Positions 10,301-25,850 of a stretch of 37,027 bases of DNA are shown here, one piece after another (position 1 is the stretch's first letter; every line of letters begins with the position of its first letter). The notes below the pieces were generated by a model. It ran no database searches. It saw only the letters and a program-made list of their open reading frames with translations, and was not told the origin of the DNA. Position numbers and translations under genes: made by a program. The stretch is from a virus. Lineage: Duplodnaviria; Caudoviricetes. The stretch spans positions 1 through 37,027 of IMG/VR virus record IMGVR_UViG_3300047282_000660; one strand, 5' to 3'.

Positions 10301-12295
10301 TGAAAATATATTAACCTGAAATCCTTTTACTGGAGAAATAGATGCTGTAAATGAACCAGATGATATTTTTGATAAATCTAAATCTGGTATCGCAGATAAA
10401 GGTATTTCTCTCAATAACTTACCACTACCACTAAATGAACCGGTATAGATTTCAATATTTCCACTTACAAAAAGTGAACCTGTTATTCGTGAACCACTAA
10501 TAGGGGATTGTACAACAAACCCAAGATTAGGAGATACGGATGCAGTTACACTACCGCTCGCTATTCTTGGAGATACAATTGAAGGTACATTTGTTAATTG
10601 AGAACCATCACCTATAAAACTAAATGCTCTAACACTTCCACTCACATCTACTGAACCTGTGAATTGAGAACCATATTCATCACCCCTTCTATCGGTAACA
10701 ACTTTAAACCCAAACGCAGGAGATACCGAAGCGGTTATTGAACCTGATTTGATTTCGGTTGATATGAGTGCATCTTCAGTAAGAGCACTTCTAGGAATGT
10801 TTCTTAAATAACGTCCATCAGAATATAAAAACGATGAAGAATCAATAGTAACGCTACCACTAAAATGCGAACCACTAGCAATTGATAATACTCTAAAACC
10901 AAAAGTTGGTGATACCGATGCTGTTACAGAACCTGATTTGATTTCGGTTGATATAAGTGCATCTTCAGTTAATGCATTTCTTGGTATATTTCTTAAATAA
11001 CGTCCATCAGAATAAATAAATGATGAAGAATCAATATAAACACTTCCACTAAATAATGAACCACTACTTATTGATAATACTCTAAATCCATATTCAGGTG
11101 CTACTGATGCAGTTATGCTTCCACTTGCTATTTGTGTAACTACTAATGCATCTGGAGCTAGAGCAGAACGCGGTATATCAAATAATCCTCTACCACTACC
11201 ACTAAACATTGATGCGGATACATTACCTAATATATCAACACTACCAGTGAACTCAGAACCTCTTAGTGAAGATTCAACTTTAAATCCAAATTCTGGACTT
11301 ACGGATGCAGTTACCGAACCAGTTGCTAATTTTGTTGCCTGTGGAAGATTAAATAAATCTCTACCATCCCCATAGAAAGAACCGGTAAATTTAGCATTTA
11401 TTGAAGAAGCTGTAATTTCATTCGTTGTAAAATTACCAGTAATATCTAAAGAACCGCTAATTGTTACTGAACCTGTAAATTCAGACCCACTAGCTAAAGA
11501 TTCTACTTTAAACCCAAATTGAGGTGATACGGATGCAGTTACACTTCCAGTTGCTAGTCTTGTTGCTTGAGGTAGATTAAATAATTTTGAACCATCGCCA
11601 ACAAAAGAACCAGTAAATGAACCTGTTGCAGATGATGCGGTTATTGCAGTTGCTACTAATCTATCTCTTATTTCAACTGAACCAGTAAATTCTTGTTTAT
11701 CCGTTAATTCATCACCAAATTTGTTTGAACCAGATGAATAAATAATTGAAGAAGAAACTATATTAACAATTAATTGGTCAGCGTATATTGATTTAGATAC
11801 AAATAAATTACCACCAATTCTTAAATCTTCGGATATTCTACCATTTCCAAGAACACTAAAATTAGTATTAATATCTAAACTAGCACTACTAAATGATGCA
11901 GTAAACGAACTAGAAGCTAATCTTTCCGCAGTATTTGATATTGGGAGATTTGTTAATTTAGAACCATCTCCACTAAATTCACCTCTAAATGAACCAGTTA
12001 AATTTGCACTACCACTAAAAGAACCAGTAAATCCACCACTTAAAATGGCACTACCACTAAAAGAACCGGTAAATGCACCACTTGCTCTATCTAAATCTAA
12101 ACTACGAACAAACCCTCTATTACCTTGGTCATCCGAAACTAATATTGCAGGTGAGCCAGAAAGTGAAGCAGAGAAGTTAGGAACACCAAAATTGGGTTCG
12201 GCTTGAGACAGGTCTAGGAATTGATACCTATCGGCCGTCACATTTTTTGGGGATACAACCCTTACCCTACCCGTTAAAAGATTACTAATTGCCAT
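1310..12295 (-). CDS. Giant (3661 aa) virion fibre protein: ~24 beta-repeats, two cupredoxin-like inserts, ~1080-aa Gly-X-Ser region, fibre C-terminal domain
   Basis: Uninterrupted ORF with many F.GDG..L.N fibre motifs. The C-terminal LDL..ANNF...TITFSNPP...ITWP..VDWPGGTAP.LT..GTDV..F domain is common at phage fibre ends. Followed by adhesin and chaperone genes. Confidence 0.85.
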   Translation of the reverse strand: MAISNLLTGRVRVVSPKNVTADRYQFLDLSQAEPNFGVPNFSASLSGSPAILVSDDQGNRGFVRSLDLDRASGAFTGSFSGSAILSGGFTGSFSGSANLTGSFRGEFSGDGSKLTNLPISNTAERLASSSFTASFSSASLDINTNFSVLGNGRISEDLRIGGNLFVSKSIYADQLIVNIVSSSIIYSSGSNKFGDELTDKQEFTGSVEIRDRLVATAITASSATGSFTGSFVGDGSKLFNLPQATRLATGSVTASVSPQFGFKVESLASGSEFTGSVTISGSLDITGNFTTNEITASSINAKFTGSFYGDGRDLFNLPQATKLATGSVTASVSPEFGFKVESSLRGSEFTGSVDILGNVSASMFSGSGRGLFDIPRSALAPDALVVTQIASGSITASVAPEYGFRVLSISSGSLFSGSVYIDSSSFIYSDGRYLRNIPRNALTEDALISTEIKSGSVTASVSPTFGFRVLSIASGSHFSGSVTIDSSSFLYSDGRYLRNIPRSALTEDALISTEIKSGSITASVSPAFGFKVVTDRRGDEYGSQFTGSVDVSGSVRAFSFIGDGSQLTNVPSIVSPRIASGSVTASVSPNLGFVVQSPISGSRITGSLFVSGNIEIYTGSFSGSGKLLREIPLSAIPDLDLSKISSGSFTASISPVKGFQVNIFSQISGSFEVSSSNFELANPTGSDCVFNVTNDGSTSYLFSGAVSGSNPNIVLVRGILYTFNLNASGHPFFIKTVNSIGTNNGYNTGVTNNGDDVGVITFTPPTGSPDVLYYNCQYHSSMGGRIYIVDKLVRPAEIRFRGDTSVTGGLYVSEKIVSKEISGSFSGSGRNLFDIPFSAFTGDANRIASGSVTASVSPIYGFAVVGGDSSFSGSVNVSQSLTSTKIIATEFTGSSFSGSFQGDGSRLTNIPAPTPTKILEGSVTASAIATKGFVVESIISGSYFSGSLQVSGGFFAYGNIELRSGSSFSGSGERLFNIPRTALAPDALDTNRILSGSVTASVSPNFGFKVESATSGSQFTGSISISGSLIADGVSVRSGSSFSGSGRNLFDIPRSAISDLDISKIFSGSATASISPNLGLLVNVPATINGFIVVTGSADIKSNAVISGSLLTKGISRFESGVSASIFSGSGAGLTDIPFSALSEELKRIATGSVTASVSPQFGFKVESIISGSQFTGSLKVSGSIFLSSGSFYSGSGEGLFNIPRTALTPDALLSTFIASGSVTASVSPQFGFRVQSADSGSEFTGSVEITGSLLVKGNVTSTSGSYFVGDGRYLSNITLANVAIDSTKIFSGSATASISPTEGFNVNVHSRLNGSLIVSASTRPTPDYQLDKIIDVTNNGSSAYIVRNASVSGSNARLTLQRGIPYTFNVNATGHPFWLKYQPSVGTDWAYSSSVVNNGEDSGLITFTPPSGSPGVLYYNCQLHSAMFGEIFIVDSIDLPAEIKLIGNTEITGSLNVSRPISASMFSGSGKGLFDIPFSNLTGDAFRIASGSVTASVSPDYGFRVESFGSGSDFSGSIRIDSSSFIYAEGTYLRRIPRSALTEDALISTEIKSGSVTASVSPDYGFRVITPFTSSVTESAYSTQIGVQITGSIDVSGSIFINDISGGLFINSSSFIYAEGTYLRNIPRSALTLDALISTEIKSGSITASVSPDYGFRVITDRSGSQVGSQFTGSIEVSGSIRATEFIYGDGRYITNVQAAAAPLIASGSATASVASGETFVVITAKTGSQVGSQFTGSIEVSGSITATDNIYADFFYGDGRYITNVVATAAPFIASGSATASVASGDRFVVITSKTGSQIGTEITGSVSLSGSLLVTDNVTADFYFGDGRFLTNVQAAAAPLIASGSATASVQSGRIFEVVTGAPSGSVGSQFTGSVQISGSLSASIYIGDGGGLFNIPASALQDLQLDRIQSGSGRAIIDPTKLDVNVPITAALYIGDGGGLFNIPANALQDLKLDRIVSGSAQAVISPNKGLEINTSVRIFSGSAEISGGLFISGGNVVLQSGSAFVGDGSGLTNINIANLSFETFLLKSGSVTASISPDKGFVVNTSASIWGNVYVGNDLKVHNNITASNTILASLFTGSFRGTYTFQGVGPTASAEYDILRYNETQGYYIPQPETSLTETVSFSNVSDLTIVHNLGIRYPMVQVYATGSEDQILPGTIHSIDDNTINIKFAGLTSGHVVIGSGGSLIQGTIQGDRVFGTVLSSSYAFKASFADSVAGFDSASLAQLSASLGDAAQYVKNNQTASMSVGRAVSASYALTASYVENLSGLNLVDYVRNDQTSSMRVLSASYAISSSYAAYAANAANVDTSNFVLISQTASMWVGTASLAYTASVALFALNAANTDTASFLQINKDQTINASLTISGSIGVSGSIVGNGAFQLNNLPTGSSDEVVIWNPVTKRLERRNVAAAVGSSGTSGLTGTDGSAGTSGSSGSSGSSGSSGSSGTSGTDGSSGSSGSSGSSGTTGTSGSSGSSGSSGSSGTAGSSGTSGTSGSSGSSGSSGSSGTSGTSGSSGTSGSSGTSGSSGTSGSSGTTGSSGTSGTSGSGGTSGTSGSSGSSGSSGSSGTSGTSGSSGTSGSSGSGGTSGTSGSSGSSGTTGTGGSSGTSGSSGTSGTSGSGGTSGTSGSGGSSGSGGSSGSTGTGGTAGTSGSSGSSGSSGSGGTSGSGGTSGTSGTAGSAGSGGSAGTSGTDGTAGTGGTSGTSGSSGSSGSSGTGGSSGTGGSGGSAGTSGSSGTSGTSGSTGTAGSSGTSGSSGTSGSDGTSGTSGQDGTSGTSGSSGSSGSSGSSGTSGSSGSSGTSGSGGTSGSSGSSGSSGTTGSSGTTGSSGTSGSSGSSGSSGSSGSSGTSGSGGSSGTTGSDGTSGSSGSSGSSGTSGTDGTSGSSGSSGSSGTEGSAGTSGSSGSSGSSGIDGTSGTDGSSGSGGTSGTSGSSGSSGSSGTSGVDGTSGVDGTSGVDGTSGTDGSTGSAGSSGSSGSSGSSGTTGSAGTSAVDGTSGVDGTSGTNGSSGSAGSSGSSGSSGTSGSGGTSGLDGTYFGSSGTSGTNGTSGTSGSSGLSGSSGTSGLDGTFFGSSGTSSSSGSSGSSGQSGTSGINGSNGTSGSSGTSAEGTSGSSGSSGSSGTAGSTGSAGSAGSSGSAGSSGSSGSSGTSGLDGTYFGSSGSSGSSATSGTTGSSGTTGSSGTSSTSGTSGVDGTFFGSSGSSGSTGTSGSSGSSGSSGSGGTSGTTGSAGSSGLDGTFFGSSGSSGSSGTSGSGGSSGSTGTAGSSGSTGTSGTSGLDGTFFGSSGSSGSSGSSGSTGTAGTSGSTGTNGTTGSAGTSGLDGTYFGSSGTAGSSGTSGAGTSGSSGTSAEGTSGTSGLDGTNFGTAGTSGTSGAGTSGSSGTSGTGTSGTSGVDGTFYGSSGTAGSGGTSGTTPPGFTSGTSGTDGVSGTSGTSAPGITSGTSGTDGLTGTSGSSGTTPPGFTSGTSGTDGVSGTSGSSGTTPPNFTSGTSGTNGGLITSGTAENGILTWQNTPAQANVESGLLFDGTILSINNGLGTDGSIDARYGYVFAKKFVETFSDLGTGGNATLDLNTANNFRRQFNGSATITFSNPPGSAGLGFGFTLTTVNAGAYSITWPVNVDWPGGTAPVLTSSGTDVLTFFTFNAGTTYYGFVVGKNLN
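1805..5055 (-). repeat. Coding low-complexity 9-nt/tripeptide repeat, Gly-[Ser/Thr/Gly]-[Ser/Ala/Asp/Gly/Thr]
   Basis: Plus strand shows CCAGATGAA/CCAGATGTA/CCAGAACTT/CCAGAGCTT units at 9-nt period; protein reads GSSGTSGSSG...; visibly more GC-rich than the flanks. Confidence 0.95.
7991..8296 (-). other. Cupredoxin-like domain 2 within the giant fibre, with type-1 copper ligand pattern
   Basis: GHPFWLK ... LYYNCQLHSAMFG (His ... Cys-x2-His-x2-Met). Confidence 0.7.
9929..10231 (-). other. Cupredoxin-like domain 1 within the giant fibre, with type-1 copper ligand pattern
   Basis: GHPFFIK ... LYYNCQYHSSMGG (His ... Cys-x2-His-x2-Met). Confidence 0.7.
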
Positions 12296-12364: not shown

Positions 12365-13291
12365 TTATTCGTTTGCACTCTCTAATATTGAGAGAACAAC
12401 CGTCAAATCTGGTGAGCCGGAAACTACAAATCCGTAACCTTCTTCTAATACTAATTTACCGGAAACTATCGGTGAAAGAGAATCTGCGGGTGGGATTGTT
12501 GCGTTTGTTACTAATTGTATTGGTAATTGTTCTACTAATGATGGAGCTTGAATAGTATTTTTAATAACATTAATCAAACTATCAACTACAAACGCAGATG
12601 CACTATAAAATGAACTTGTTACATCAAAATTTGTATTAAATGATTGAGTAAACGCCGTTTGATTCAATGTTGGTGTTAAATCTGAACCTGTTACTGATTG
12701 ATTTTTTATTACCGATGTTGCTAAATTATTCACATAATCTAATAGAAATAAAGAAGAAGAATATTCTTCAGGATAAATACTTTTAATTATATTTGAACCA
12801 TTTTTTGTATAATATGCCTTTGCTGCTTTTGTAGTTCTTATTGTTTTATCATTTACAACATCATATGCAATAGCATCAATAGCATCAACTGCATAATTTT
12901 CAAATCTAGAGGATGTAAATGTAAAAGGAGTTTCTGATAAATTGTTTAGATTATTAATATATGCTGCGGCTTCTTTTTTTATAAAAGTTTTATTAAGACT
13001 TAATAACGCAGATGCACTATCCAATGCTCCCAAATAATTTCCATTTAAAACAGTAGAACCGCTTAAAAAAAATGAAGAACTAAAAACTCCTTCAAAATTT
13101 GGTATTGCCAATTCTCTATTAGACTTTATAAGTATAGTTACAGGTTGAACTTGTAAACTATTATTAGTTATTTGAATAGAAAGCATAATGGATGATACTC
13201 CATTTGGTGCTACATATATTTCATCTTCTTCTCCCGTTAAGTTTGTTATTAACGATTGAAATCGGTTTAACGGTACAAATACATTTGCCAT
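12365..13291 (-). CDS. Virion structural protein (small beta-sandwich family of T4-like aquatic phages) with an inserted Cys-less copy of the helical domain repeated in the 4178-aa protein
   Basis: N-terminal IYVAPNGVSSIMLSIQITN and C-terminal IPPADSL...GKLVLEEG...LTVVLSILES flank LLSLNKTFIKKEAAAYI...IDAIAYDV...AAKAYY, which matches the neighbour's repeat. Confidence 0.7.
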   Translation of the reverse strand: MANVFVPLNRFQSLITNLTGEEDEIYVAPNGVSSIMLSIQITNNSLQVQPVTILIKSNRELAIPNFEGVFSSSFFLSGSTVLNGNYLGALDSASALLSLNKTFIKKEAAAYINNLNNLSETPFTFTSSRFENYAVDAIDAIAYDVVNDKTIRTTKAAKAYYTKNGSNIIKSIYPEEYSSSLFLLDYVNNLATSVIKNQSVTGSDLTPTLNQTAFTQSFNTNFDVTSSFYSASAFVVDSLINVIKNTIQAPSLVEQLPIQLVTNATIPPADSLSPIVSGKLVLEEGYGFVVSGSPDLTVVLSILESANE

Positions 13292-13313: not shown

Positions 13314-16300
13314 TTATATTTGAAGTGCCAATGAGAACGGAGTTACTAATGAGAATAGAGATTTACTAAATGTTCTACCCACAAGAGTACCAGTTGCCTG
13401 GTTAATACTTAAACCAGTACCAATTCTAAAGTCACCATCTTGGTTACCGGATGTGAAGAATATTCTACCGCCACCCAATTCAGTAATTTCAAAAGCCGGA
13501 TTAGCTTGTCCACTACCGCCTTGGTTTGGTGGAAGTGCTTTAAACGTCACACCAGAACCATTATAAGAGTAGTCAATACCGGTTGCCACAATCAATGAAC
13601 CAAACGATTCTAATGGTGCATTTGCCGCTATAAACTCTGCTCTCGTTCTTAAATATCTGTTAGTTTCTAAAGTCTCTAATTTTTGCTGATTAATTACAGC
13701 TGCTGCACTTCCATATTGCCCGGTATAATAAGAAGATGCTGCTGCAACACTTCTTTCGTTTCCACCATACAATAAATCGGTTGCAACGGAATCAATAATA
13801 ATTCCTGTATCTCTAGAACAACTTGCTTCGTTATAAACTAAGTATGGGAATGCTCCATTTGTATAACTGATTGCTCTCTGTTTTAATTCATTTTTAGAAC
13901 CTATCAATCTAGCATACGCTTCTCTACGTTTAGTTGGTGCGAAAACAAGTTTTGTTTGTAATACAACTTTTTCAGCTACACCTTTTGCGAAATTAATACC
14001 ATCTACGGTTTGATTTTTCTGTCCTGCATCACCATTATTAGTATATGAAGGTTCTATTGCTACGGATGGAATTCTATAATAAGTTGAACCCGCTTCAATA
14101 CTTCTTTCGTTACCACCATAAACTAAGTCAGTTTTAACAGCATCAATAATAAATCCAATGTCACGAGAACAACTTACTTCATTGTATTTAAATCCACTCC
14201 AAGATGATGATAAGTAAGCAATTGTTTCTTTTTGTATAAACAATGAGTTACTTGTCAATAATCCACTTGCATTTAATGCAGATTGTGAAGGTGGATTAAA
14301 TGTAGAATTTAATACAACTTTACCAGAAATTCTACCCGCGTATCTAACACCAGTAACGGTTGGGTCTAACTGATTTTGTTCAGAAGGTACTCCGGCGTTA
14401 GTTGCTTTTGATGGGAATAGATAATAATATGTTCCAGCTACAACACTTCTTTCTTGACCACCATATAATAGGTCAGTTGCCGCTGCATCTACAATATAAC
14501 CAACATCACGAGAACAACTTGCTTCGTTGTAATAAACATTACTCCAAGAAGAAGAAACATAAGCGATAGTTTCTGCTGCAATGAATTGTTTATTTTTTCT
14601 TAATAAATCAAATGATGCCGAAACTTGCGCGGAAGCTGTGATAAATGTAATATTCTGAACAACTTTTTGTGCAATTCTACTTGCATATTTTATACCATCA
14701 ATTGTTTGATATAATTGTCCAACACTATCACCATCTCCCAACAATGTTGCTTTTGAAGGATATAAGAAATAAAATCTTCCTGCTTCTCTAGCTCTTTCAT
14801 TACCACCATAAAGTAGGTCAGTTGCTACAGCATCTACTATATATCCAACATCCCTCTTACACTTATCTTTATCATATTCAAATGTACTCCAACTAGCAGT
14901 AAGATATGCCATAGTTTCTTCTTGAATAAATGTTCTATTTTTTCTTAATAAATCAAATGAAGAAGAAACAATATTAGAAGCTGTTACAAATGTTTTGTTT
15001 TGTAATAATTGTTTAGCCAATCCACTTGCATAATCAATTGCAGTAACCGTAGGTTCTAATTGAGTTGATGTTGCGGTTGATGGGTAAGTATAATAATATT
15101 GTCCAGCAATTGTACTTCTCTCATTACCACCATAAAGTAGGTCAGTAGAAACAGCATCAATTATATGAACAACATCTCTTTCACAAACTGATTGCGAATA
15201 TGCAAATCCATTCCAAGATGAACTTAAGAATGAAATAGTTTCTTTCTTAATAAATTCTTTATTACTTCTTAATGTATTATAAGATGCCGAAACTTCAGCA
15301 GATGCGGTTACATATTCAATATTTTGTATTAAATTTTGTGCCAATCTACTTGCATAATTAATACCATCAATAGTTTGATTTAATTGTGCACCTTGCGCCT
15401 GTGAAGGGTAAATGTAATAGAATTTACCATTCATTACTGATGCCGAATTTGCGTTCCATAACAGGTCTTCAGCCGCACCACTAATGATTAAACCAACATC
15501 ACGTCTACACTTAGTTTCATCATACGATGCAGTGCTCCAAGATGAACTTAAGTATGCAATAGTTTCATTTTGAATGAATGGAATATTTGCTTTAAGTATT
15601 TCATATGCTGCAATTACATTTGAGGATGAAATTGACGCGGTATAAAGAGTTACATTTGGTAATGATCCTGTACCATTCAATATTATATTAGTTACAATTC
15701 CAATTGATGCGGAAACAAATGCTACATCTTCTAAACTACCACTAAATGATGAAGATATGTATTGTGATGTATTAGTTGTTTTAACATGTCCAACTGTATT
15801 AAGAATTGGCTGAGGAACACTAATCAAAATATTATTTACAATATTCTCACTCAATCTAGCCGCATATCTAATCGCATCGGTAGTTTCAATTACTTGTGCG
15901 TTAGTTGTTGCCAATGAAGGATATAAGTAATAGAATTCACCTGCTCTAATTGATTGTTCATTTCCAGCATATAGAAGGTCAGTTGCTACAGCATCTACAA
16001 TATATCCAACATCTCTCTTACATTTATCTTCGTTATAATCTAAATTAGGATATTTTGCATTTACATATGCTACTGATTCCGATTGTATATACTTTTTATT
16101 TTGTTGTAGTAAATCATAAGATTCGTTTACAGCTACAGAAGGAGTAAAGAATTGTTTATTAACAACCAAATTCATTGAACTTCCTTTAGCGTATCTTATA
16201 CCAGTTAATGTAGGTTCTAATTGAGAATCGGTTGCTTGAGATGGATAATCATAATAATATCTTCCAGCTACAATACTTCTCTCATTTCCACCATACAACA

Positions 16301-19300
16301 AATCAGTTGCTACAGCATCAACTATATAACCTATATCTCTACTACAACTTGCTTCATTGTATTCAAAATTACTCCAAGATGAAGAAACATACGCTATTGA
16401 TTCAGATTGAATGAATCCTTTATTTTGTCTTAAATTGTTATATGCATCCAATGTTGTGGATGATGGGCTTGCGAAGTGTATATTTCTTACAACCTTTTCA
16501 GCCATTCCACTTGCAAATTTAATTGCAGTTACGGTTTGGTCTAACTGAGAACCAATTGCCTGTGATGGATATTCGTAATAGAATTTACCATTAACAAATG
16601 ATGCAGAGTTACCACCAAATAAAAGGTCATGTGCCGCACCACTTATGATTAGTCCTAAATCTCTTTCGCACTTAGATTGGTCATAATAGAATGATGACCA
16701 AGAAGAACTCATATACGCAATAGATTCTGAAACAATAAATGCACTATTACTTACTAATAAGTTATATGCATTATTAATTCTCGGATTATTATTTGGATTT
16801 AGACTAGATGATACAAATCTTACTGAACCTGTACCATATAATAAAATAGATACTACCGTTGCAAATGAAGAAGATACTAATTTACTTTGCAATCTATCTG
16901 CACTAGCGCCTAATGTTTGAACAGCATTTGTAACTTTAATACCCGCATTTGTATTATTTACCAAAGTTGGAATTGAAGAAACTCCATTTTCTATAATACC
17001 CATCACTACACCAAAATTAGATGAAATTGAATTTACATCAGATTGAGATGCTGAAATAGATGAAGTTGTTGGAGTTAATCCGCTAACAATAATTGATGCG
17101 GAAGTATTTGTTATTAAATTAGGTTTTACATTCAATCCATTTTTTACAACATTTACAATTGTACCATAAGATGAACTTACATTTAATGCCTGATTATTAT
17201 GTGCTCCAACTCCAGTTATTTGTGTTTCATTTGTTATGTGCCACAAAGTTGGTGTTACCAATTCAAATCCATAATTAAATGAAGATACTAAAGAATCTGG
17301 TACTGAATATTCACCATTATAAATAATATTTCTTATGTGGGTAAACGAAGATGTTACTATATCTAATGTATTACCACTTGCAGAAATTGCAGATTTAATT
17401 TGAGTTTCCCCACTTACTTTAATTACATTTTCATTATTAGATACTAATGTAGGAAGTGCAGGCAATCCACCTTCAATTATCTGTGTAACAGTTGCAAATG
17501 ATGAACTTATATTTGTTACTTCACTTATTCCAGCACTTAGTGATGATGAATATTGTATTTGAGAAGTTACTTTAATATTCTTAGTTGTATTATCACTAAA
17601 TAATGGCTTATTAAGTAATATATTTTGAGCAACCGCTTTTGATACTGCTTTTGCATATTCAACACCAGCTACAGTTTCTAAAACTTGGTCATATGTTGTT
17701 GCTTTAGAAGGATAACGATAATAGTAATCACCAGCTATAACACTTCTTTGATTACCACCATACCATAAATCAGTTGCAACATTATTTACAATATATCCAA
17801 CATCCCTTCTACATTTTTCTCTATTATATTTTAAATTAGGATAAAATGCATCAATGTATTGGATAGTTTCATTTTGTATGAATTGTCTATTAGAAACCAA
17901 CAATGAGTATGCCGATTGTACATAGCTAGTTGGTTCAACTAATTCCTGGTTTGATATTACTTTTTGCACCAATCCAGCTGCAAATGCAATTCCATCTAAA
18001 GTTGGTCCTTTTTGTGCATCAGTTGTTGGTGATACGCTTGAAGTTACAGTTGCCGCTGAAGGATATAAATAATAATATTCTCCCGCTTTTGTACTTCTTT
18101 CATTACCACCATATATTAAATCAGTTGCTACATTATCAATGATATATGCAACATCTCTACTACAACTAGCTTCATTGAATTGGAAATTATTAATTCCAAC
18201 CCAAGATGAACTTAAGAATGCAATTGTTTCTTTTTGAATTAATTGTTTATTTTTTCTTAATAAATCAAAACTTGCCGATTCGGAGTTAGTTGGAGTTTGT
18301 AATATTTGATTACTTACAATTTTTTCAGAAATTCCTTTTGCATATCTAATTCCATCTAAAGTTTGATTTAATTGACCACCAGTATCACCATCGTTTCCTA
18401 CAGTTGCTAAAGAAGGATATAAATAATAATATTCTCCTGCCTCTCTTACTCTTTCATTACCCCCATATAAAATATCAGTTGCCACAGCATCTACTATATA
18501 TCCAGTATCTCTACTACAACTTGCTTCATTATAATTAAAGAATGACCAAGAAGAACTTACAAATGCGATTGTTTCTTTTTGTATAAATTCTTTATTATCA
18601 AGTAATAAATTATATGCAATTTGAGAAGAAATAGAAGCACTAGCAAATACTTTATTATTTAATATTTCTTTTACTATATGTTTAGCGTGCCTTATTCCAC
18701 TTAATGTAGGTCCTAATTGTGTTGTAGTAGCTTGTGAAGGATATAAGTAATAAAACTTACCCGCTTCAATACTTCTTTCATTACCACCATATACCACATC
18801 AGTAATTACAGCATCTAAAATATATTTTACATCTCTTTTACAAGTTTCTTGATTGTAAACAAATCCATTCCAACTTGCAGAAACATACGCAATTACTTCA
18901 TCTGCTATAAAGTTTTTATTATTGAATATTGCTTCTTTAATCTTAATTTTTTCCTGATTAACATTGTTTAATTTAAGATTTCTCAGCAATCTATCCGATA
19001 AATCTTTAGCGTATTTAATTCCGGTAATAGTTTCTTCAATTTGAGAACCAGTTGCAGCTGACGGATATAGATAATAATAAACTCCAGATTTTACACTTCT
19101 TTCATTGCCACCCCATTTAATATCGGTTGCAACTGAATCTATAATGTATCCAACATCTCTCTTACATTTAGTTTCATCGTAAGAATGTGAACTCCAAGAT
19201 GAACTTAAATATGCAATAGTTTCATTTTGAATCAATGATTTATTATATATTAACAAATCATATGCCGCATTTGATTGAGAATTTGGTAAATTAAATACTA

Positions 19301-22300
19301 CATTTTTAACAACTTTTTGTGCTAATTGAGATGCGTAAATAATACCATCTAATGTTTGATTTAATTGTGCACCTTGTGCTTGTGATGGATAGTCATAATA
19401 GAATTTACCATTAACTACGGATGCAGAATTAGCGTTCCATAGTAAATCTTCCGCTGCACCACTAATAATTAACCCAATATCACGTCTACATTTAGTTTCA
19501 TCATACGATGCAGTTGACCAAGAAGAACTCAAATATGCAATAGTTTCATCTTGTATAAACTGGATATTATTTTTTAATAATCCATATGCAGTTAAAACAT
19601 TTGATGATGAAATTGATGCAGTATATAATGTAATTGTTGGTAAACTTCCAACACCATTTTTAATTATATCGGTTACAATTGAAATTGATTGTGATATAAA
19701 TGTAGATTCAACATTTGTTGCAGAAGATGCCGAAATGTATTGTGAAGTTCCGGTAACTCTTATATTTGCATTTGTATTTGATAATACCGATGGTACTGCT
19801 ACTAATCCATTTTGTAAAATATTAATTATAGTGTTATAACTTGCACTAACAGTATTAATTGGATTACCAAAATATGAAGAAGATACTTGATAAGATGAAG
19901 AATATTGACTTCCACTAGTAATTTTTACCAAACCGGCAGTATTCTTTACCAATGAAGGTAAAGAGCCTGTTCCGTTTTCTACAATATCCAATATAACATT
20001 AAATCTATTATCTACAAATTCTTTATTTACAATTGAAATAGATTCAGTAGTAGAATATTGTGGTTGAGATGTTATTTTAATTAATCCAGATGCATTTGTT
20101 TGTAATACCGGAATTGAACCAGTACCACCACCGATAATATCAATTACAATATCAAAACCACTTTTAACTTTTTCTATTTCAGCACTAGCTGGTGTATTTG
20201 AAGAAGTAATTTGATTATTACCAGTTCTATTTACACCTCTAAATGAAGAAGAAATTATAGTTGGTTTTGAAGATAATCCTTTATCAATGATGTTAATTAC
20301 ATTACCAAAGGATGCCGATACGATTAATTTGTCAGATAAACTAGCAGAATCATTATTAAAATATTGTAATTCATTTGTCTTTTTAATACCATTTTCAGTA
20401 TTACTAATAATTGCAGGATAAACTGAACTACCACTTTCAATAATTTTTGCAACAATATCAAATCCATCTTCAATTGCCTTTCCACCTATTGCAATTAATT
20501 TTGTTAAATCTTTTGCAAAGTTAATTGCGGAAATTGTTTCATCCGATTGTGAATCGGTTGCCTGTGATGGATATGTGAAATAGAAAATTCCAGAATTTCT
20601 ACTTCTTTCATTACCACCATATACTAAATCAGTTATAACACCATCAACAATAAATCCAACATCTCTATAACATTTTGAAATATTATAATTTAGATATGGA
20701 TAGTTTTCATTTGTAAAATCAACTGTATTTTGTTGTATAAATGTTCTATTTTTTCTTATCAAATCAGCGGCTTCAATTACCGATGCAGATGGATGTAAAA
20801 GTTGTACATTCTGAACAATATTTTGAACTAATTGATTTGCGTAATAAACACCAGTTATTGTTGGGTCTAATTGTGCAGTTGCAGAAGGTACACCACCAAT
20901 TGTTGCGTTTGATGGATATAAATAATAAAACTCACCGGCTTTATTACTTCTTTCATTACCACCATATACTAAGTCAGTTCTTACCGCATCTAAAATATAA
21001 CCAACATCTCTCTTACACTTAGCTTCATTGTAATAAACTTCTGACCAAGATGAAGATACATATTCAACAACTTCCGCTGCAATAAGTTCTTTATTTTTTC
21101 TAATTAATTCACTAGCGTTTACTTTATTAGTTTCCGCTTGAGTAAATGATTGCCCAACTATAATCTTTTGAGCTAATCTAGATGCATATCTAACACCATC
21201 GGTTGTTTGAATTAATTGAGAATCGGTTGCTTGAGATGGATATAAGAAGTAGTATCTCCCTGCTTCTATTGTTCTCTCATTACCACCATATACTAAGTCA
21301 GTTAAAACATTATCAATAATATATCCAACATCTCTTTTACATTTAGATTCATTATAATCAAAAGAACCCCAAGATGAACTTAAATACGCAATTGTTTCAT
21401 TTTGTATAAATTGCTTATTGTTTACTAATAAAGTTTGTGCATTTAGTTTATTAGTTGAAGGCAATCCAAATACAATATTTTGAATCACTTTTTGTGCTAA
21501 TCTACTTGCATATTTTATACCATCTAAAGTTTGATTAATTTGAGCATCAGTTGCTTGAGATGGATACTCATAATAATATTGTCCATTTACAATTGATGCT
21601 GAATTTGCGTTCCAAATTAAATCTTCCGCTGCACCACTAATGATTAAACCAATATCTCTTTTACATTTAACCTCATCGTATTCAAATCCTCTCCAAGATG
21701 AACTTAAATATGCAATAGTTTCATTTTGAATGAATGGAATATTTGCTTTAAGTATTTCGTAAGCAGCTACCGTATTTGATGAAGAAACCGATGATGTGTA
21801 TAATTGTTTAGCAAATAATTCAATGTTTCCAGTTTCTATAATTTGTGTTACTTTTGAAATAGATGCAGAAATAAAAGATACATCTTCTAAACTACCACTA
21901 AATGATGCCGAAATATATTGAGAAGTTCCGGTTACTTTTATATTACCCACTACATTACTTACATAAGAAGGAAGTACACTTAATCCATTTGTAATAATAT
22001 TGATTACAGTTTCTATTGATGAACTTATAGATGCACTTTCCGCCATAGTTGCTGCGGTTGAAGAAACAATAGATGTGTTGGTTACAGCAATATTATTATT
22101 TGTATTTAAAATTATAGGCTGTATAGATGATAATCCATTTGTTATTATTTTACCAACTTGCCCAATAGATGCTGATAATTCATTCAATACCGAACCACTT
22201 GCTGCATTTGAACCAGACCATTGTGAAATAGAAGTAATCTTTTTAGTAAGATTTTGAGATGAAGTAAATGCAGATATTAAAGATATACCATTTTTAATAA

Positions 22301-25300
22301 TATTTGTTACTACTCCAAAATTTCTATCAATTATTCCAATTTCATCCGGTGATACATAAGAAGAAGTAATTTGTGAACCTGACGTTACATTAAGTGGAAT
22401 ATCTTTACTCCAAGAATTACCAGGTACATTTTGTGCCAGTATTGAAGGGATTGCACCTACTCCTCTTTTTATTATTCCTTCAACAATCGCAAAAGAACTA
22501 CTAATAGAACTTTGTTCAGTTGTTGTTCCAGATACAGATGAAGTAATATTTGTTAATCCTAATTTATTGTTTCTTACACCTCTTTCATCATTTAGTACAA
22601 TTCTAGGTGTTTCTAAAATTAAATTTTGTACAACATAATCTGAAATAATCTTTGAGTATCTTATTCCACCAATTGTTTCTTTCTTTTGAATTGATGTTGC
22701 TATTGATGGATAATCATAATAATATCTACCAGCAGTTACACTTCTTTCGTTACCACCATAATAAAGGTCAGTAGCGATTGCATCTATAATATATCCAACA
22801 TCCCTTCTACATTTATCTTGATTATATTTTAAAGCAGGATACGCAACATTAACAAATTGAATTGTTTCATTTTGTATTAATTCTTTATTTTGTTTTAATA
22901 ATAAAGATGCAGTTGCAGTACTGCCTGATGCTAAGTTGAAAGTTTTTCCTTGAATTAAATTTTGAGATAATCCAGCTGCAAAACGAATACCATCTAAAGT
23001 TTGTCCTAATTGTCCTTCTGAATCACCATCTCCTTCTACAATAGCTAAAGAAGGGTATAAATAATAGTAAGTTCCAGCGGTAATAGCTCTTTCATTTCCA
23101 CCATAAAGAATATCAGTTGCTACTGCATCTACGATATATCCAATATCACGAGAACAACTTGCTTCATTATAATAAAAATTAGACCAAGATGAAGATAGAT
23201 ATGCAATTGTTTCTTTTTGTATAAATTGTTTATTATCACCCAATACTTCCCACGCAGCATATCTATTAGTATTACCATCAGCATCTACAAATGATGCAGT
23301 TGATAACAATAATCTTTGAACTAGTCTTGAAGCGTATCTTATTGCCTCCGAAGTTGGTCCTAATTGCGATGTTGTTGCCTGTGAAGGATACTGATAATAG
23401 AAGAAACCATTTCTAATTGATTCTTCGTTTCCACCATATAATAAATCTTTGTTTACACCATCAATTATATATCCTAAATCTCTACTACAAGAAGCCTGAT
23501 TGTAAACAAAATTTGACCAAGATGAACTAATATATCTTATAGTTTCATCAATAATAAATGGTTTACTTCCACTTATTATTTCAAATGCGTTTATTATATC
23601 AACGTTTTCACTAGGTAAGGATGAACTATTAATTGTTGCAGGATACGTTAATGTTGATTCAATAAGTGGTCTTGAAGTTGTTGTTGAATTGACAATATTA
23701 AATTCTCCAGATAATCCTATTTTTGTTTGTGCAACATAATATAATTTATTAGGTGCGTTATAAGGAACGGTAAAAGTAATTGTTCCTTCTGCTTCACCAT
23801 TATTTATTACTCCATTATTATAATCCCAAGTTGGGTCTATACCATCTATTTTTCTAGTTCTAATCCAGAAAGGATAATTATCAGGTCCTCTATCTTCTGA
23901 TGCTGATAAAAAGAATTTATACGTTTCCCCTCTAAATAAAGTAATTGTTGGATTATTTCCAACTCCACTAAAATTATAAAATAAACTTGCACTATCGGTT
24001 ACAACAAATGAAGTTTTATGGTCATTTGGAATTGGCAAAATAGGAGAACCAGTACCATTTGTTAAAATATTATATACGGTGCTAAAACTTGCACTAATGT
24101 TTCTTGCAGTAGATAAAGAAGAAGTAATTCCGGTAATATACTCAACCAATTCACCAACTTTTATACTTTCGCTTGTATTTGAAATTAAATTTGGTCTTGC
24201 CGATAATCCTTTTTCAATAATTGTTACAATCGTAGAAAATGATGCAGATACGCTTGCAGTTGTTTGATTTGTTGCAACTTCTGATGTTCCAGTTGGATTA
24301 ATTGAAGTATATTTAATTGCATCAATTGTATTTTGCTTAAATACATATGAACCAGTACCATTTGAAAAAATTCCAAGTAAAACACCATAAGATGCACTAA
24401 TTGCATTTAAATCTGCAGATGATGCGGATATTGATGATGTTATTTGTTGTGCACCTAAAATGTTATAAGGTGAATCAAATCCATATCCCTTATTTGAAGA
24501 TTTCGCTAAAAGAGTTGGAAAATTAGTTGTACCATTATATACAATTTCTTTTATCAAATTAAAATCAGCAACAACTTCATCACTTTCTTTTATACTTGCG
24601 GTTGCAGAAGGATTTAAAGATTGAGTTAAATTAGTAACTTTTATACCTTCAGCGGTATTAAAAATTGTTACATCTGGCAACCCTTCTTCTAATCCTTTAT
24701 TTAACACATCTACAATAATAGAATAATTTTCTCTTGTTCTATTTCTTCCTTCTAAATAACCACCACTACCAGAAATTAAACGAGAACCAGATGCATACAT
24801 ACCATACAAACCAAACGAAATGTTTGAGTTGTTCAATGTAGCATGTCCACCATTATTTACTCTAATAGCGTAATATGAGAAGTTATTAAAGAAAGATACC
24901 AACTGAATGAATCCTCTACCATTAACCAAACATCCCACACCATTTGGAGAAATCTGTGTATAAGCATCCAATACCATTGAAGCAAGTGGAGAATCTGGAT
25001 TAATTACATCACCATTAACATAAAGACCTCCACCTCCCGGCGGAATATCTTCGTAAAGTTCGGTAAATGAATTCTCTTGGTTAGAAATTTGAGAACAGTT
25101 CTGAATATATGGTGAAGTTGTAATAAATGCTCCTGGTTGGAAAGCAAAACCAAATCCTCTTTCAGGATTAATTTGGTCAGGCCATAGTCTTAATCCTCCA
25201 ACTGTCACCTCTGCAATATAACACCCAGAGTTTACCCAAAATAAATCTTGCTCAGGATTCTTTGCGTTAATTTTAGTAATACGCAAACCCGCACCCCAAA

Positions 25301-25850
25301 TAGTTGTGTTCTTAGGAAGAATAACAGGATTATCTTCTAAGTAAGTACCAGCTTGCACTTTAATTACATAACCATTGAATATTGAACCAGTATCAAACCC
25401 ATATCTACCATCATATCCAGGTGTAGATAACTGTGCCGCTCTTTTAATTGTACGAAGTGGATATTGAATAGTTCTACCATCATTGTTATCATCACCATCG
25501 GTTGAAGATACATAAAGTGTTGGAACGTTAGCACCAAAATCTTTTGCAAGGATTCCAGAATATCTTTGAGTATCTAAAGATGCAAGAGCGTTTGATGCGG
25601 TTGCAGATAAAACAGCTTCAGGTCCAGCAAATTCTAATTTTCCTTTAATATTTAAAGAACCGGTTAAGAAAACCGAGCCAGTTATTTCATTTCTATCATT
25701 TACATCATTACCTAAAAAGAAACTCTTAGAAACAAAAAGTGAACCTGATATAATGGCATCATTTCCAATATCAACATTTTGTTGTATTGTGAGGGAACCA
25801 GATATATTCTGTTGTTCTTCAATCTGCTTACGAGGTATCAGTCTTGCCAT
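13314..25850 (-). CDS. Giant (4178 aa) virion structural protein: pectin-lyase-like beta-helix interrupted by 22 phycobiliprotein-like C-x-R-D modules and 22 complementary helix modules
   Basis: LYVSSTDGDDNNDG....PLRTIKRA and SPYIQNCS...MVLDAYTQ beta-helix start. C-terminal GGRIFFTSGNQDGDFRIG..L.INQATG...TPF.LAL resembles ends of large virion proteins of aquatic T4-like phages. Repeats are directly visible. Confidence 0.85.
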   Translation of the reverse strand: MARLIPRKQIEEQQNISGSLTIQQNVDIGNDAIISGSLFVSKSFFLGNDVNDRNEITGSVFLTGSLNIKGKLEFAGPEAVLSATASNALASLDTQRYSGILAKDFGANVPTLYVSSTDGDDNNDGRTIQYPLRTIKRAAQLSTPGYDGRYGFDTGSIFNGYVIKVQAGTYLEDNPVILPKNTTIWGAGLRITKINAKNPEQDLFWVNSGCYIAEVTVGGLRLWPDQINPERGFGFAFQPGAFITTSPYIQNCSQISNQENSFTELYEDIPPGGGGLYVNGDVINPDSPLASMVLDAYTQISPNGVGCLVNGRGFIQLVSFFNNFSYYAIRVNNGGHATLNNSNISFGLYGMYASGSRLISGSGGYLEGRNRTRENYSIIVDVLNKGLEEGLPDVTIFNTAEGIKVTNLTQSLNPSATASIKESDEVVADFNLIKEIVYNGTTNFPTLLAKSSNKGYGFDSPYNILGAQQITSSISASSADLNAISASYGVLLGIFSNGTGSYVFKQNTIDAIKYTSINPTGTSEVATNQTTASVSASFSTIVTIIEKGLSARPNLISNTSESIKVGELVEYITGITSSLSTARNISASFSTVYNILTNGTGSPILPIPNDHKTSFVVTDSASLFYNFSGVGNNPTITLFRGETYKFFLSASEDRGPDNYPFWIRTRKIDGIDPTWDYNNGVINNGEAEGTITFTVPYNAPNKLYYVAQTKIGLSGEFNIVNSTTTSRPLIESTLTYPATINSSSLPSENVDIINAFEIISGSKPFIIDETIRYISSSWSNFVYNQASCSRDLGYIIDGVNKDLLYGGNEESIRNGFFYYQYPSQATTSQLGPTSEAIRYASRLVQRLLLSTASFVDADGNTNRYAAWEVLGDNKQFIQKETIAYLSSSWSNFYYNEASCSRDIGYIVDAVATDILYGGNERAITAGTYYYLYPSLAIVEGDGDSEGQLGQTLDGIRFAAGLSQNLIQGKTFNLASGSTATASLLLKQNKELIQNETIQFVNVAYPALKYNQDKCRRDVGYIIDAIATDLYYGGNERSVTAGRYYYDYPSIATSIQKKETIGGIRYSKIISDYVVQNLILETPRIVLNDERGVRNNKLGLTNITSSVSGTTTEQSSISSSFAIVEGIIKRGVGAIPSILAQNVPGNSWSKDIPLNVTSGSQITSSYVSPDEIGIIDRNFGVVTNIIKNGISLISAFTSSQNLTKKITSISQWSGSNAASGSVLNELSASIGQVGKIITNGLSSIQPIILNTNNNIAVTNTSIVSSTAATMAESASISSSIETVINIITNGLSVLPSYVSNVVGNIKVTGTSQYISASFSGSLEDVSFISASISKVTQIIETGNIELFAKQLYTSSVSSSNTVAAYEILKANIPFIQNETIAYLSSSWRGFEYDEVKCKRDIGLIISGAAEDLIWNANSASIVNGQYYYEYPSQATDAQINQTLDGIKYASRLAQKVIQNIVFGLPSTNKLNAQTLLVNNKQFIQNETIAYLSSSWGSFDYNESKCKRDVGYIIDNVLTDLVYGGNERTIEAGRYYFLYPSQATDSQLIQTTDGVRYASRLAQKIIVGQSFTQAETNKVNASELIRKNKELIAAEVVEYVSSSWSEVYYNEAKCKRDVGYILDAVRTDLVYGGNERSNKAGEFYYLYPSNATIGGVPSATAQLDPTITGVYYANQLVQNIVQNVQLLHPSASVIEAADLIRKNRTFIQQNTVDFTNENYPYLNYNISKCYRDVGFIVDGVITDLVYGGNERSRNSGIFYFTYPSQATDSQSDETISAINFAKDLTKLIAIGGKAIEDGFDIVAKIIESGSSVYPAIISNTENGIKKTNELQYFNNDSASLSDKLIVSASFGNVINIIDKGLSSKPTIISSSFRGVNRTGNNQITSSNTPASAEIEKVKSGFDIVIDIIGGGTGSIPVLQTNASGLIKITSQPQYSTTESISIVNKEFVDNRFNVILDIVENGTGSLPSLVKNTAGLVKITSGSQYSSSYQVSSSYFGNPINTVSASYNTIINILQNGLVAVPSVLSNTNANIRVTGTSQYISASSATNVESTFISQSISIVTDIIKNGVGSLPTITLYTASISSSNVLTAYGLLKNNIQFIQDETIAYLSSSWSTASYDETKCRRDIGLIISGAAEDLLWNANSASVVNGKFYYDYPSQAQGAQLNQTLDGIIYASQLAQKVVKNVVFNLPNSQSNAAYDLLIYNKSLIQNETIAYLSSSWSSHSYDETKCKRDVGYIIDSVATDIKWGGNERSVKSGVYYYLYPSAATGSQIEETITGIKYAKDLSDRLLRNLKLNNVNQEKIKIKEAIFNNKNFIADEVIAYVSASWNGFVYNQETCKRDVKYILDAVITDVVYGGNERSIEAGKFYYLYPSQATTTQLGPTLSGIRHAKHIVKEILNNKVFASASISSQIAYNLLLDNKEFIQKETIAFVSSSWSFFNYNEASCSRDTGYIVDAVATDILYGGNERVREAGEYYYLYPSLATVGNDGDTGGQLNQTLDGIRYAKGISEKIVSNQILQTPTNSESASFDLLRKNKQLIQKETIAFLSSSWVGINNFQFNEASCSRDVAYIIDNVATDLIYGGNERSTKAGEYYYLYPSAATVTSSVSPTTDAQKGPTLDGIAFAAGLVQKVISNQELVEPTSYVQSAYSLLVSNRQFIQNETIQYIDAFYPNLKYNREKCRRDVGYIVNNVATDLWYGGNQRSVIAGDYYYRYPSKATTYDQVLETVAGVEYAKAVSKAVAQNILLNKPLFSDNTTKNIKVTSQIQYSSSLSAGISEVTNISSSFATVTQIIEGGLPALPTLVSNNENVIKVSGETQIKSAISASGNTLDIVTSSFTHIRNIIYNGEYSVPDSLVSSFNYGFELVTPTLWHITNETQITGVGAHNNQALNVSSSYGTIVNVVKNGLNVKPNLITNTSASIIVSGLTPTTSSISASQSDVNSISSNFGVVMGIIENGVSSIPTLVNNTNAGIKVTNAVQTLGASADRLQSKLVSSSFATVVSILLYGTGSVRFVSSSLNPNNNPRINNAYNLLVSNSAFIVSESIAYMSSSWSSFYYDQSKCERDLGLIISGAAHDLLFGGNSASFVNGKFYYEYPSQAIGSQLDQTVTAIKFASGMAEKVVRNIHFASPSSTTLDAYNNLRQNKGFIQSESIAYVSSSWSNFEYNEASCSRDIGYIVDAVATDLLYGGNERSIVAGRYYYDYPSQATDSQLEPTLTGIRYAKGSSMNLVVNKQFFTPSVAVNESYDLLQQNKKYIQSESVAYVNAKYPNLDYNEDKCKRDVGYIVDAVATDLLYAGNEQSIRAGEFYYLYPSLATTNAQVIETTDAIRYAARLSENIVNNILISVPQPILNTVGHVKTTNTSQYISSSFSGSLEDVAFVSASIGIVTNIILNGTGSLPNVTLYTASISSSNVIAAYEILKANIPFIQNETIAYLSSSWSTASYDETKCRRDVGLIISGAAEDLLWNANSASVMNGKFYYIYPSQAQGAQLNQTIDGINYASRLAQNLIQNIEYVTASAEVSASYNTLRSNKEFIKKETISFLSSSWNGFAYSQSVCERDVVHIIDAVSTDLLYGGNERSTIAGQYYYTYPSTATSTQLEPTVTAIDYASGLAKQLLQNKTFVTASNIVSSSFDLLRKNRTFIQEETMAYLTASWSTFEYDKDKCKRDVGYIVDAVATDLLYGGNERAREAGRFYFLYPSKATLLGDGDSVGQLYQTIDGIKYASRIAQKVVQNITFITASAQVSASFDLLRKNKQFIAAETIAYVSSSWSNVYYNEASCSRDVGYIVDAAATDLLYGGQERSVVAGTYYYLFPSKATNAGVPSEQNQLDPTVTGVRYAGRISGKVVLNSTFNPPSQSALNASGLLTSNSLFIQKETIAYLSSSWSGFKYNEVSCSRDIGFIIDAVKTDLVYGGNERSIEAGSTYYRIPSVAIEPSYTNNGDAGQKNQTVDGINFAKGVAEKVVLQTKLVFAPTKRREAYARLIGSKNELKQRAISYTNGAFPYLVYNEASCSRDTGIIIDSVATDLLYGGNERSVAAASSYYTGQYGSAAAVINQQKLETLETNRYLRTRAEFIAANAPLESFGSLIVATGIDYSYNGSGVTFKALPPNQGGSGQANPAFEITELGGGRIFFTSGNQDGDFRIGTGLSINQATGTLVGRTFSKSLFSLVTPFSLALQI
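13650..24740 (-). repeat. Array of 22 ~105-115-aa C-modules (L..NK.FIQ.ETIAY.SSSW..F.Y.E..C.RD.GYI.DAV.TDL.YGGNERS..AG.YY..YPS.AT) and 22 ~50-aa H-modules (Q...S....[IV]S.S[FYI]..[IV]..I[IV]..G...P)
   Basis: C-x-R-D codons located near 23480, 23150, 22805, 21660, 21335, 21010, 20665, 19485, 19160, 18835, 18510, 18160, 17805, 16665, 16340, 16015, 15505, 15180, 14855, 14510, 14165 and 13815. Confidence 0.92.

Follow-up and report, generated by a model that had tools for sequence, protein, structure and literature searches.

The window analysed here is the whole 37,027-nucleotide contig of a tailed virus (Duplodnaviria; Caudoviricetes; record IMGVR_UViG_3300047282_000660), and a scan of its 16 open reading frames (ORFs) found a myovirus structural gene cluster. 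The cluster encodes a major capsid protein (Gp23), a head-tail adaptor (Ad2), a gp15-like protein, a fibre chaperone and two giant ORFs, one of which specifies the 4178-amino-acid (aa) protein studied here. The nearest cultured capsids were those of Microcystis phage Mel-JY01 (53%), Flavobacterium phage immuto (50%) and RM378 (40%). Homology to PHROGs 4527 and 5342 together with the neighbouring Gp23, Ad2, gp15-like and fibre chaperone genes identified the giant protein as a tail-fibre or virion protein, and it very probably sits on the virion. A Pfam scan of the whole protein returned nothing relevant, with no PF00502 and no match for the flanks of its host domain. The protein alternates runs of short helical units (H) and longer cores (C), and we favour, on balance, the interpretation that it is an appendage of the virion whose 22 phycobiliprotein-like domains, each made from two distant pieces of the chain, form a branched tree, likely with one covalent bilin per domain.

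Scanning with hidden Markov models (HMMs) resolved 22 H units and 22 cores in the order H5 C3 H5 C4 H6 C6 H5 C3 H1 C6, which is the order that an earlier sequence-only reading had proposed. Because the window HMMs were trained on these very modules, the result is a count and not an independent test. Exactly 22 CxRD-bearing cores were present in the protein, and a helix profile refined on homologues gave an identical H/C string, at a threshold that let through about 0.2 false matches for each shuffled protein. This profile was itself trained on these proteins, and three helices had low scores with it (0.4, 3.3 and 6.9 bits). The modules spanned 13623-24749, in agreement with the 13650..24740 given earlier (Table 1). 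With H read as an opening and C as a closing bracket, the depth stayed at or above zero throughout and finished at zero, as the earlier reading had also noted. A non-negative order alone is weak evidence and was rejected as a stand-alone argument, as 3456 of 14400 run permutations (24%) meet it by chance.

Table 1. Parts of the giant protein and neighbouring features in the window.
Feature	Position	Strand	Basis
Giant virion/fibre-type protein, 4178 aa	13314..25850	(-)	PHROGs 4527 (short tail fiber, E 4e-193) and 5342 (tail fiber)
Host domain, N-terminal half, aa 105-362; beta-helix by the look of the sequence only	24765..25538	(-)	Alignment to S-PM2 p091 and S-RSM4 paralogue
H1-H5, five H units (each an extended segment and a helix of ~18 aa ending IIxxG)	24057..24749	(-)	HMM calls
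Beta-rich insert, tip of branch 1, aa 606-725	23676..24035	(-)	By eye
C1-C3, phycobiliprotein-like cores (helices A-G), Cys788/899/1014	22614..23594	(-)	CxRD and HMM
H6-H10	21831..22517	(-)	HMM, AlphaFold model
C4-C7 (C4 tip type; Gly-Gly turn links C7 to H11)	20475..21770	(-)	CxRD, AlphaFold model
H11-H16	19656..20486	(-)	HMM
C8-C13	17616..19595	(-)	HMM
H17-H21 (H18-H19 spacing of 59 aa, branch exit)	16836..17522	(-)	HMM, AlphaFold model
C14-C16	15825..16775	(-)	HMM, AlphaFold model
H22, tip helix (lost with C17 in L004)	15675..15728	(-)	Layout comparison, AlphaFold model
C17-C22, return path along trunk	13623..15614	(-)	HMM, AlphaFold model
Host domain, C-terminal half	13371..13598	(-)	Relatives' flanks; phrog_3442
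Downstream 308-aa protein, one unsplit Cys-less domain copy, core then helix H, inside a small domain	12365..13291	(-)	
Neighbouring 3661-aa fibre	1310-12295	(-)	
T4 gp15-like tail protein	26599-28263	(-)	

Balance was kept in homologues with other repeat numbers, as the sequence-only reading had expected. Among distinct closed ORFs, the window's included, 19 of 21 were balanced and fell into 11 layouts, with 12-25 pairs each. The count excluded open-ended ORFs and any H call before residue 300, one such call being a weak match at residue 26 in L058. Both exceptions could be explained: in L023 an assembly break precedes the start of the ORF and the upstream DNA still shows H1 and H2, and in L033 H1 was seen by eye with a score below threshold. 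Layouts included H5C3H5C4H5C8, H5C3H8C7H5C3H1C6 and H5C3H5C4H4C2H4C6H5C3H2C7, and the length of an H run followed the next C run and not the previous one (H5C4/H6C5/H7C6/H8C7; H1C6/H2C7). Gains and losses were themselves balanced, with L004 lacking H22 and C17, L029 having two additional H and two additional C, and L006 lacking six H and six C as well as H22 and C17. Only 65 of the 525 contiguous blocks of 1-14 modules in the window string are balanced, so chance would not be expected to yield balanced gains and losses again and again. In L014 (3461-18748), L037 and L040, spacers after H helices contained beta-rich inserts (about 40, 160 and 415 aa), with the balance undisturbed. A 2234-aa relative, P0032, kept the H-run/C-run layout and had lost CxRD in many cores.

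The cores resembled phycobiliproteins in sequence. A profile of the 22 cores matched only two PDB sequences, both phycocyanin alpha and both weakly (E 0.5 and 1.1), and a profile of the corresponding cyanophage modules matched CpcA at E 2e-4, with 51 of its 54 PDB matches being biliproteins or derivatives; PF00502 matched 0 of 22 cores at E<=10. In an AlphaFold model of aa 1084-1866, C7 and the adjacent H11 superposed on a full phycobiliprotein globin (VIA Z 15.9, 1.9 A, 120 aligned), model residues 602-722 aligning to phycobiliprotein chain residues 30-177. Foldseek with the predicted model gave a probability of 1.0 and a TM(target) of about 0.6 but E>0.1, and against viral models it returned only homologous phage proteins at low global TM. 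When a core alone was aligned, from a second AlphaFold model, the alignment ended at chain residue ~142-151 in most rows. Because the full globin needs both C and H while the core alone stops short, C is, on these models, a phycobiliprotein-like fold lacking its final helix, and H supplies that helix. Together these results bear out the pigment-protein fold and the split domains, with H laid on the outward and C on the return path, that had been proposed. The cores begin at the equivalent of phycobiliprotein chain residue ~30, and the residues absent are presumably the N-terminal X/Y helices. Unsplit domains with the core followed by H were present in the adjacent 308-aa protein, and the order core then helix H was also found in cyanophages.

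Covariation across 597 helix-core pairs (about 149 effective) supported nested pairing. The nested register gave a top z of 12.2 with 6-7 pairs at z>4, compared to none at z>4 for a +1/-1 shift, one for parallel and two for first-in-first-out pairing. The nested couplings were spaced as an antiparallel arrangement of helices H and G would predict, the signal stayed when the outermost pair was removed (z 11.7), and in held-out swaps, 36 of which were sampled from the possible ones, the nested partner was preferred 27-28 times. An AlphaFold model of H17-H22 with C14-C18, which spans a branch point, reached a pLDDT (predicted local distance difference test) of 82 and a pTM (predicted template modelling score) of 0.70. 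Five of its helices were at 77-93 and the predicted orphan H17 was lowest at 58-69; H18, with its predicted partner ~700 residues downstream, was among the confident helices. Two points weigh against the nested register: the covariation pairs are phylogenetically non-independent, and docking was read from AlphaFold confidence alone with shallow alignments (10 and 25 rows). H and C runs might alternatively build separate structures, an H-only bundle and C-only rods, with equal counts reflecting a length match. This would fit the 58-69 of H17 even without its predicted partner and an AlphaFold output that came without a contact map, but it is extremely unlikely given that the covariation is register specific, that the core misses exactly the helix given by H, and that unsplit core-then-H domains occur both in the adjacent gene and in cyanophages. 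Oligomers are common among phage fibres and covariation is blind to cis versus trans, so H and C could also pair between subunits by domain swapping to give a network and not single-chain trees. The tip links of ~20 aa, the never-negative order in all balanced homologues and the confident single-chain AlphaFold model instead fit folding in cis, making trans pairing very unlikely. We are therefore confident that the 22 domains nest, by predicted docking, as a branched single-chain tree.

The register was ambiguous at one junction. In the AlphaFold model of H6-H12 with C4-C7, H8-H10 were at 66-86 and H6, H7 and H12 at 30-52, with H7 at about 30 and H11 at about 60. Of the proposed sub-tree H10:C4, H9:C5, H8:C6, H7:C7, the three tip-ward helices were thus modelled confidently and H7 was not, though covariation favoured H7:C7. 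Couplings trained on unambiguous pairs favoured H7:C7 with H11:C13 in 16-17 of 21 related cases, L024 having been left out as a truncation artefact. The Gly-Gly hairpin between C7 and H11, the first AlphaFold model and the short core-helix hairpins of P0056-type proteins pointed to C7:H11 with H7:C13. These conflicting signals of AlphaFold and covariation count against the favoured interpretation, and the two pairings are near even. Loss of the C7-C12 block in L006 and L033 was considered as proof of H7:C13 and rejected, as a long link after C13 is needed under either pairing. A complex prediction of H7-H11/C4-C7 with C13 scored 0.17 against a mark of 0.32 and was counted for neither. The trunk and the two 3-domain branches are identical either way; of the branch sizes 3, 4, 6 and 3 originally proposed, the 4 and 6 are not fixed because they hinge on this junction.

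The chain would also return to its own host domain, as had been suggested, because the flanks of the repeat insertion lie close together in relatives, separated by ~110 aa in S-PM2 p091 and by 180 aa in 644-aa relatives. Shorter relatives formed a growth series at the same site, with one Cys-less domain in the 644-aa forms and then 3 and 4 pairs (partly by eye). In S-RSM4 SRSM4_214 (L026:9277-22725) and S-PM2 p091 (L028:9124-19140) the same domain was nested with other cut points, helix A running outward and core-plus-H on the return, in 7/7/7 and 5/5/5 pieces (by eye). Both carried a conserved Cys just before helix H, which we take to be the beta-153/155 site, although the HMMER alignment did not reach it; this Cys is a candidate second bilin site of the kind served by T-type lyases. 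cpeT lay just upstream of SRSM4_214 in S-RSM4. A third cut point was seen in the small relatives P0056, P0058, P0119 and P0055, where a Cys-less host domain contains a permuted domain, with helix A last, that surrounds 2-3 nested helix/core pairs. The 119-aa homologue of the downstream 308-aa protein in L203 was without the helical-domain insert.

CxRD was present in 22 of 22 window cores and in 100% of 646 distinct modules, while neighbouring positions varied, and the window protein had a single Cys per core and none in its H units. The KCxRD of the modules aligned to the alpha-84 site, KCARD, at the start of helix E of phycocyanin alpha. CxRD is the bilin attachment motif, and the globins BBAG-1 and -3 bind bilins without lyases (PMC10151467). 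Adjacent genes for haem oxygenase (HO) and a bilin reductase were found in 4 of 5 long records with modules and in 4 of 4 distinct near-complete carriers, the fifth long record being a shorter contig whose 2778-aa ORF is that of G001. They lay ~110-140 kb from the module gene in G001-G004 and G006, so clustering of the BBAG type was not seen. The domain was matched at E<=1 by 350 of 50,697 cultured-phage records, of which 348 were named Synechococcus, Cyanophage or Prochlorococcus phages; the capsid relatives immuto, Mel-JY01 and RM378 were in neither the domain nor the reductase match list.

Several observations weigh against a pigmented protein. The CpeS lyase was found in 0 of 5 relatives (G001-G004, G011) and CpeT in only 1 of 5. 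Pelagibacter phage Mosig (L093) has HO and a reductase with no module of this family found in its genome, and the 297-kb relative G011 has both enzymes with only a Cys-less domain copy. No module was found in 4 of 5 partial reductase-bearing contigs (fragments, 37-79% complete) and neither HO nor reductase in ten partial carriers (fragments, 41-71% complete). Cys-less or degenerate versions (the 308-aa neighbour, P0073 and P0032) keep the fold without the motif, and, as the window is a 37-kb fragment, the bilin-gene evidence comes from relatives. A general rule that HO and reductase serve only to pigment this protein was ruled out by Mosig and G011, and the enzymes probably have other uses too. 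In Mosig, HO and pcyA/X lie directly upstream of neck genes, and the CpeT-like protein of the psbA-less phage G001 (L092:1486-2172) starts with a hydrophobic signal-peptide-like segment. The same nested tree could be a purely structural scaffold with a borrowed fold, in which CxRD serves folding or another modification and the tree spaces adhesive beta-domains. The persistence of Cys-less copies, the lack of a tie between the enzymes and CxRD modules and the 40-415-aa beta-rich inserts on helix spacers of relatives are consistent with such a scaffold, which we consider possible but doubtful: all 646 modules keep C, R and D amid variable positions, the window H units offer no partner Cys for a disulphide, and the carriers are phages with a bilin supply. 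Covalent binding of bilin by the modules is accordingly what we consider likely.

Two inserts of the adjoining 3661-aa fibre were cupredoxin-like and carried H...CxxHxxM motifs (about 9970 and 8032), which we take to be the type-1 copper ligand pattern. This fibre also had numerous 'ASGSVTASVS' repeats and an extended Gly-Ser-Thr triplet tract, the latter scored as collagen by Pfam. The branch-1 tip insert of the giant protein (aa 606-725) was similar to these cupredoxin-like inserts, without their CxxHxxM ligands, and was missing from some homologues. On the other side of the giant gene, the gp15-like protein was joined via a Thr-rich linker to an Lcl C-terminal-like domain.

The sequence-only reading had further suggested, should the modules bind pigment, a phycobilisome-like antenna. 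In a true antenna the bilins of the tree would pass excitation to an acceptor such as the photosystem of the host or the neighbouring fibre's copper sites. The phycobiliprotein fold in 22 ordered copies and the two cupredoxin-like inserts next door would suit an antenna. However, psbA was found in 0 of 5 relatives, the nearest cultured capsids include those of Flavobacterium and Rhodothermus phages, and the cores start at helix A, lacking the N-terminal helices that build alpha-beta units in phycobiliproteins. We know of no reaction centre in a virion. Bilin globins of the BBAG type also fluoresce weakly (3-7%; PMC10151467). An energy-transfer antenna was therefore unsupported and is most improbable, and an energy-harvesting role of the tree is unlikely.

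Compared to known systems, the modules share with phycobiliproteins (CpcA/ApcA/CpeB; PF00502) a globin-type fold that covers helices A to H (Z 15-16, 1.7-1.9 A) and the CxRD motif aligned to alpha-84, and BBAGs likewise co-occur with HO and a ferredoxin-dependent bilin reductase (PMC10151467). Unlike both, the phage domain is split and permuted, with helix H from upstream and 22 copies per chain; unlike phycobiliproteins, its cores lack the N-terminal pairing helices, leave PF00502 unmatched, have 12-20% identity and carry a bilin that is putative. Recursive domain-in-domain insertion with forks in one chain is described for Si3 of the cyanobacterial RNA polymerase RpoC2, which has 8-10 small beta hybrid-motif domains in 6 levels within an enzyme (PMC13114784, PMC11515920). 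The phage proteins would have the same nested discontinuous A1-B1-C-B2-A2 pattern with forks, but in a fibre, with 12-25 helical domains nested to a depth of up to 9 and with layouts that vary freely between relatives yet stay balanced. The family is like Si3 in topology and like BBAGs and phycobiliproteins in fold, and is a member of neither. Cyanomyovirus proteins annotated as 'short tail fiber / tail fiber / virion structural' (PHROG 4527, 5342, 701), with no fold or function given, have the same host domain and a nested CxRD helical domain. In these proteins the domain runs from helix A through the core to helix H, with cuts between A and core and between core and H and with the conserved Cys before helix H, whereas in the window family H has moved upstream and A stays with the core. 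That no description of this architecture exists, as the earlier reading had stated, held for the family itself, for which none of its fold or nesting was found in the literature covered (openly available papers), and did not hold for recursive insertion with forks as such, which is described for Si3.

We propose that the tip helix-core pairs (H5:C1, H10:C4, H16:C8, H21:C14 and H22:C17) would fold first and that every later core would then zip onto the next helix outward. Longer helix spacers of 57-59 aa may let side branches leave a predicted trunk of H1:C22, H2:C21, H6:C20, H17:C19, H18:C18 and H22:C17, and the chain end would meet the chain start inside the host domain of the fibre. Tree size would change via equal gain or loss of helices and cores. 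Bilin could be supplied by phage HO and a PcyA/PcyX-type reductase, or by the host in cyanophages, and the CxRD Cys would be its attachment point, with probably no dedicated lyase involved. In the weakest step of this proposal, the tree may be a pigmented appendage that faces the host, becomes stiffer once bilin is bound and serves attachment or survival in sunlit water.

The family offers a design rule found in nature by which a single chain is predicted to form a branched protein, with size and shape adjustable through balanced blocks, as the 11 layouts illustrate. It also places a predicted phycobiliprotein-like fold with a pigment-attachment motif in phage structural proteins, those of the cultured cyanophages S-PM2 and S-RSM4 included, and provides a candidate client for phage bilin genes. 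The purpose of bilin genes in non-cyanophages is called speculative (PMC11480375) and the role of phage cpeT unresolved (PMC3037559), and a light-sensitive tail component is invoked for adsorption that is light dependent and independent of photosynthesis (PMC6628666). A bilin-tree fibre is a candidate for that component. We tentatively raise a wider picture, which we regard as rather unlikely in full, in which large aquatic myoviruses, cyanophages or not, would build coloured particles with bilin-loaded single-chain tree appendages made of split phycobiliprotein domains, ho, pcyA, pcyX, pebS and cpeT would serve the phage's own virion proteins and not the host antenna, and the pigment might act as a light switch for light-dependent adsorption.

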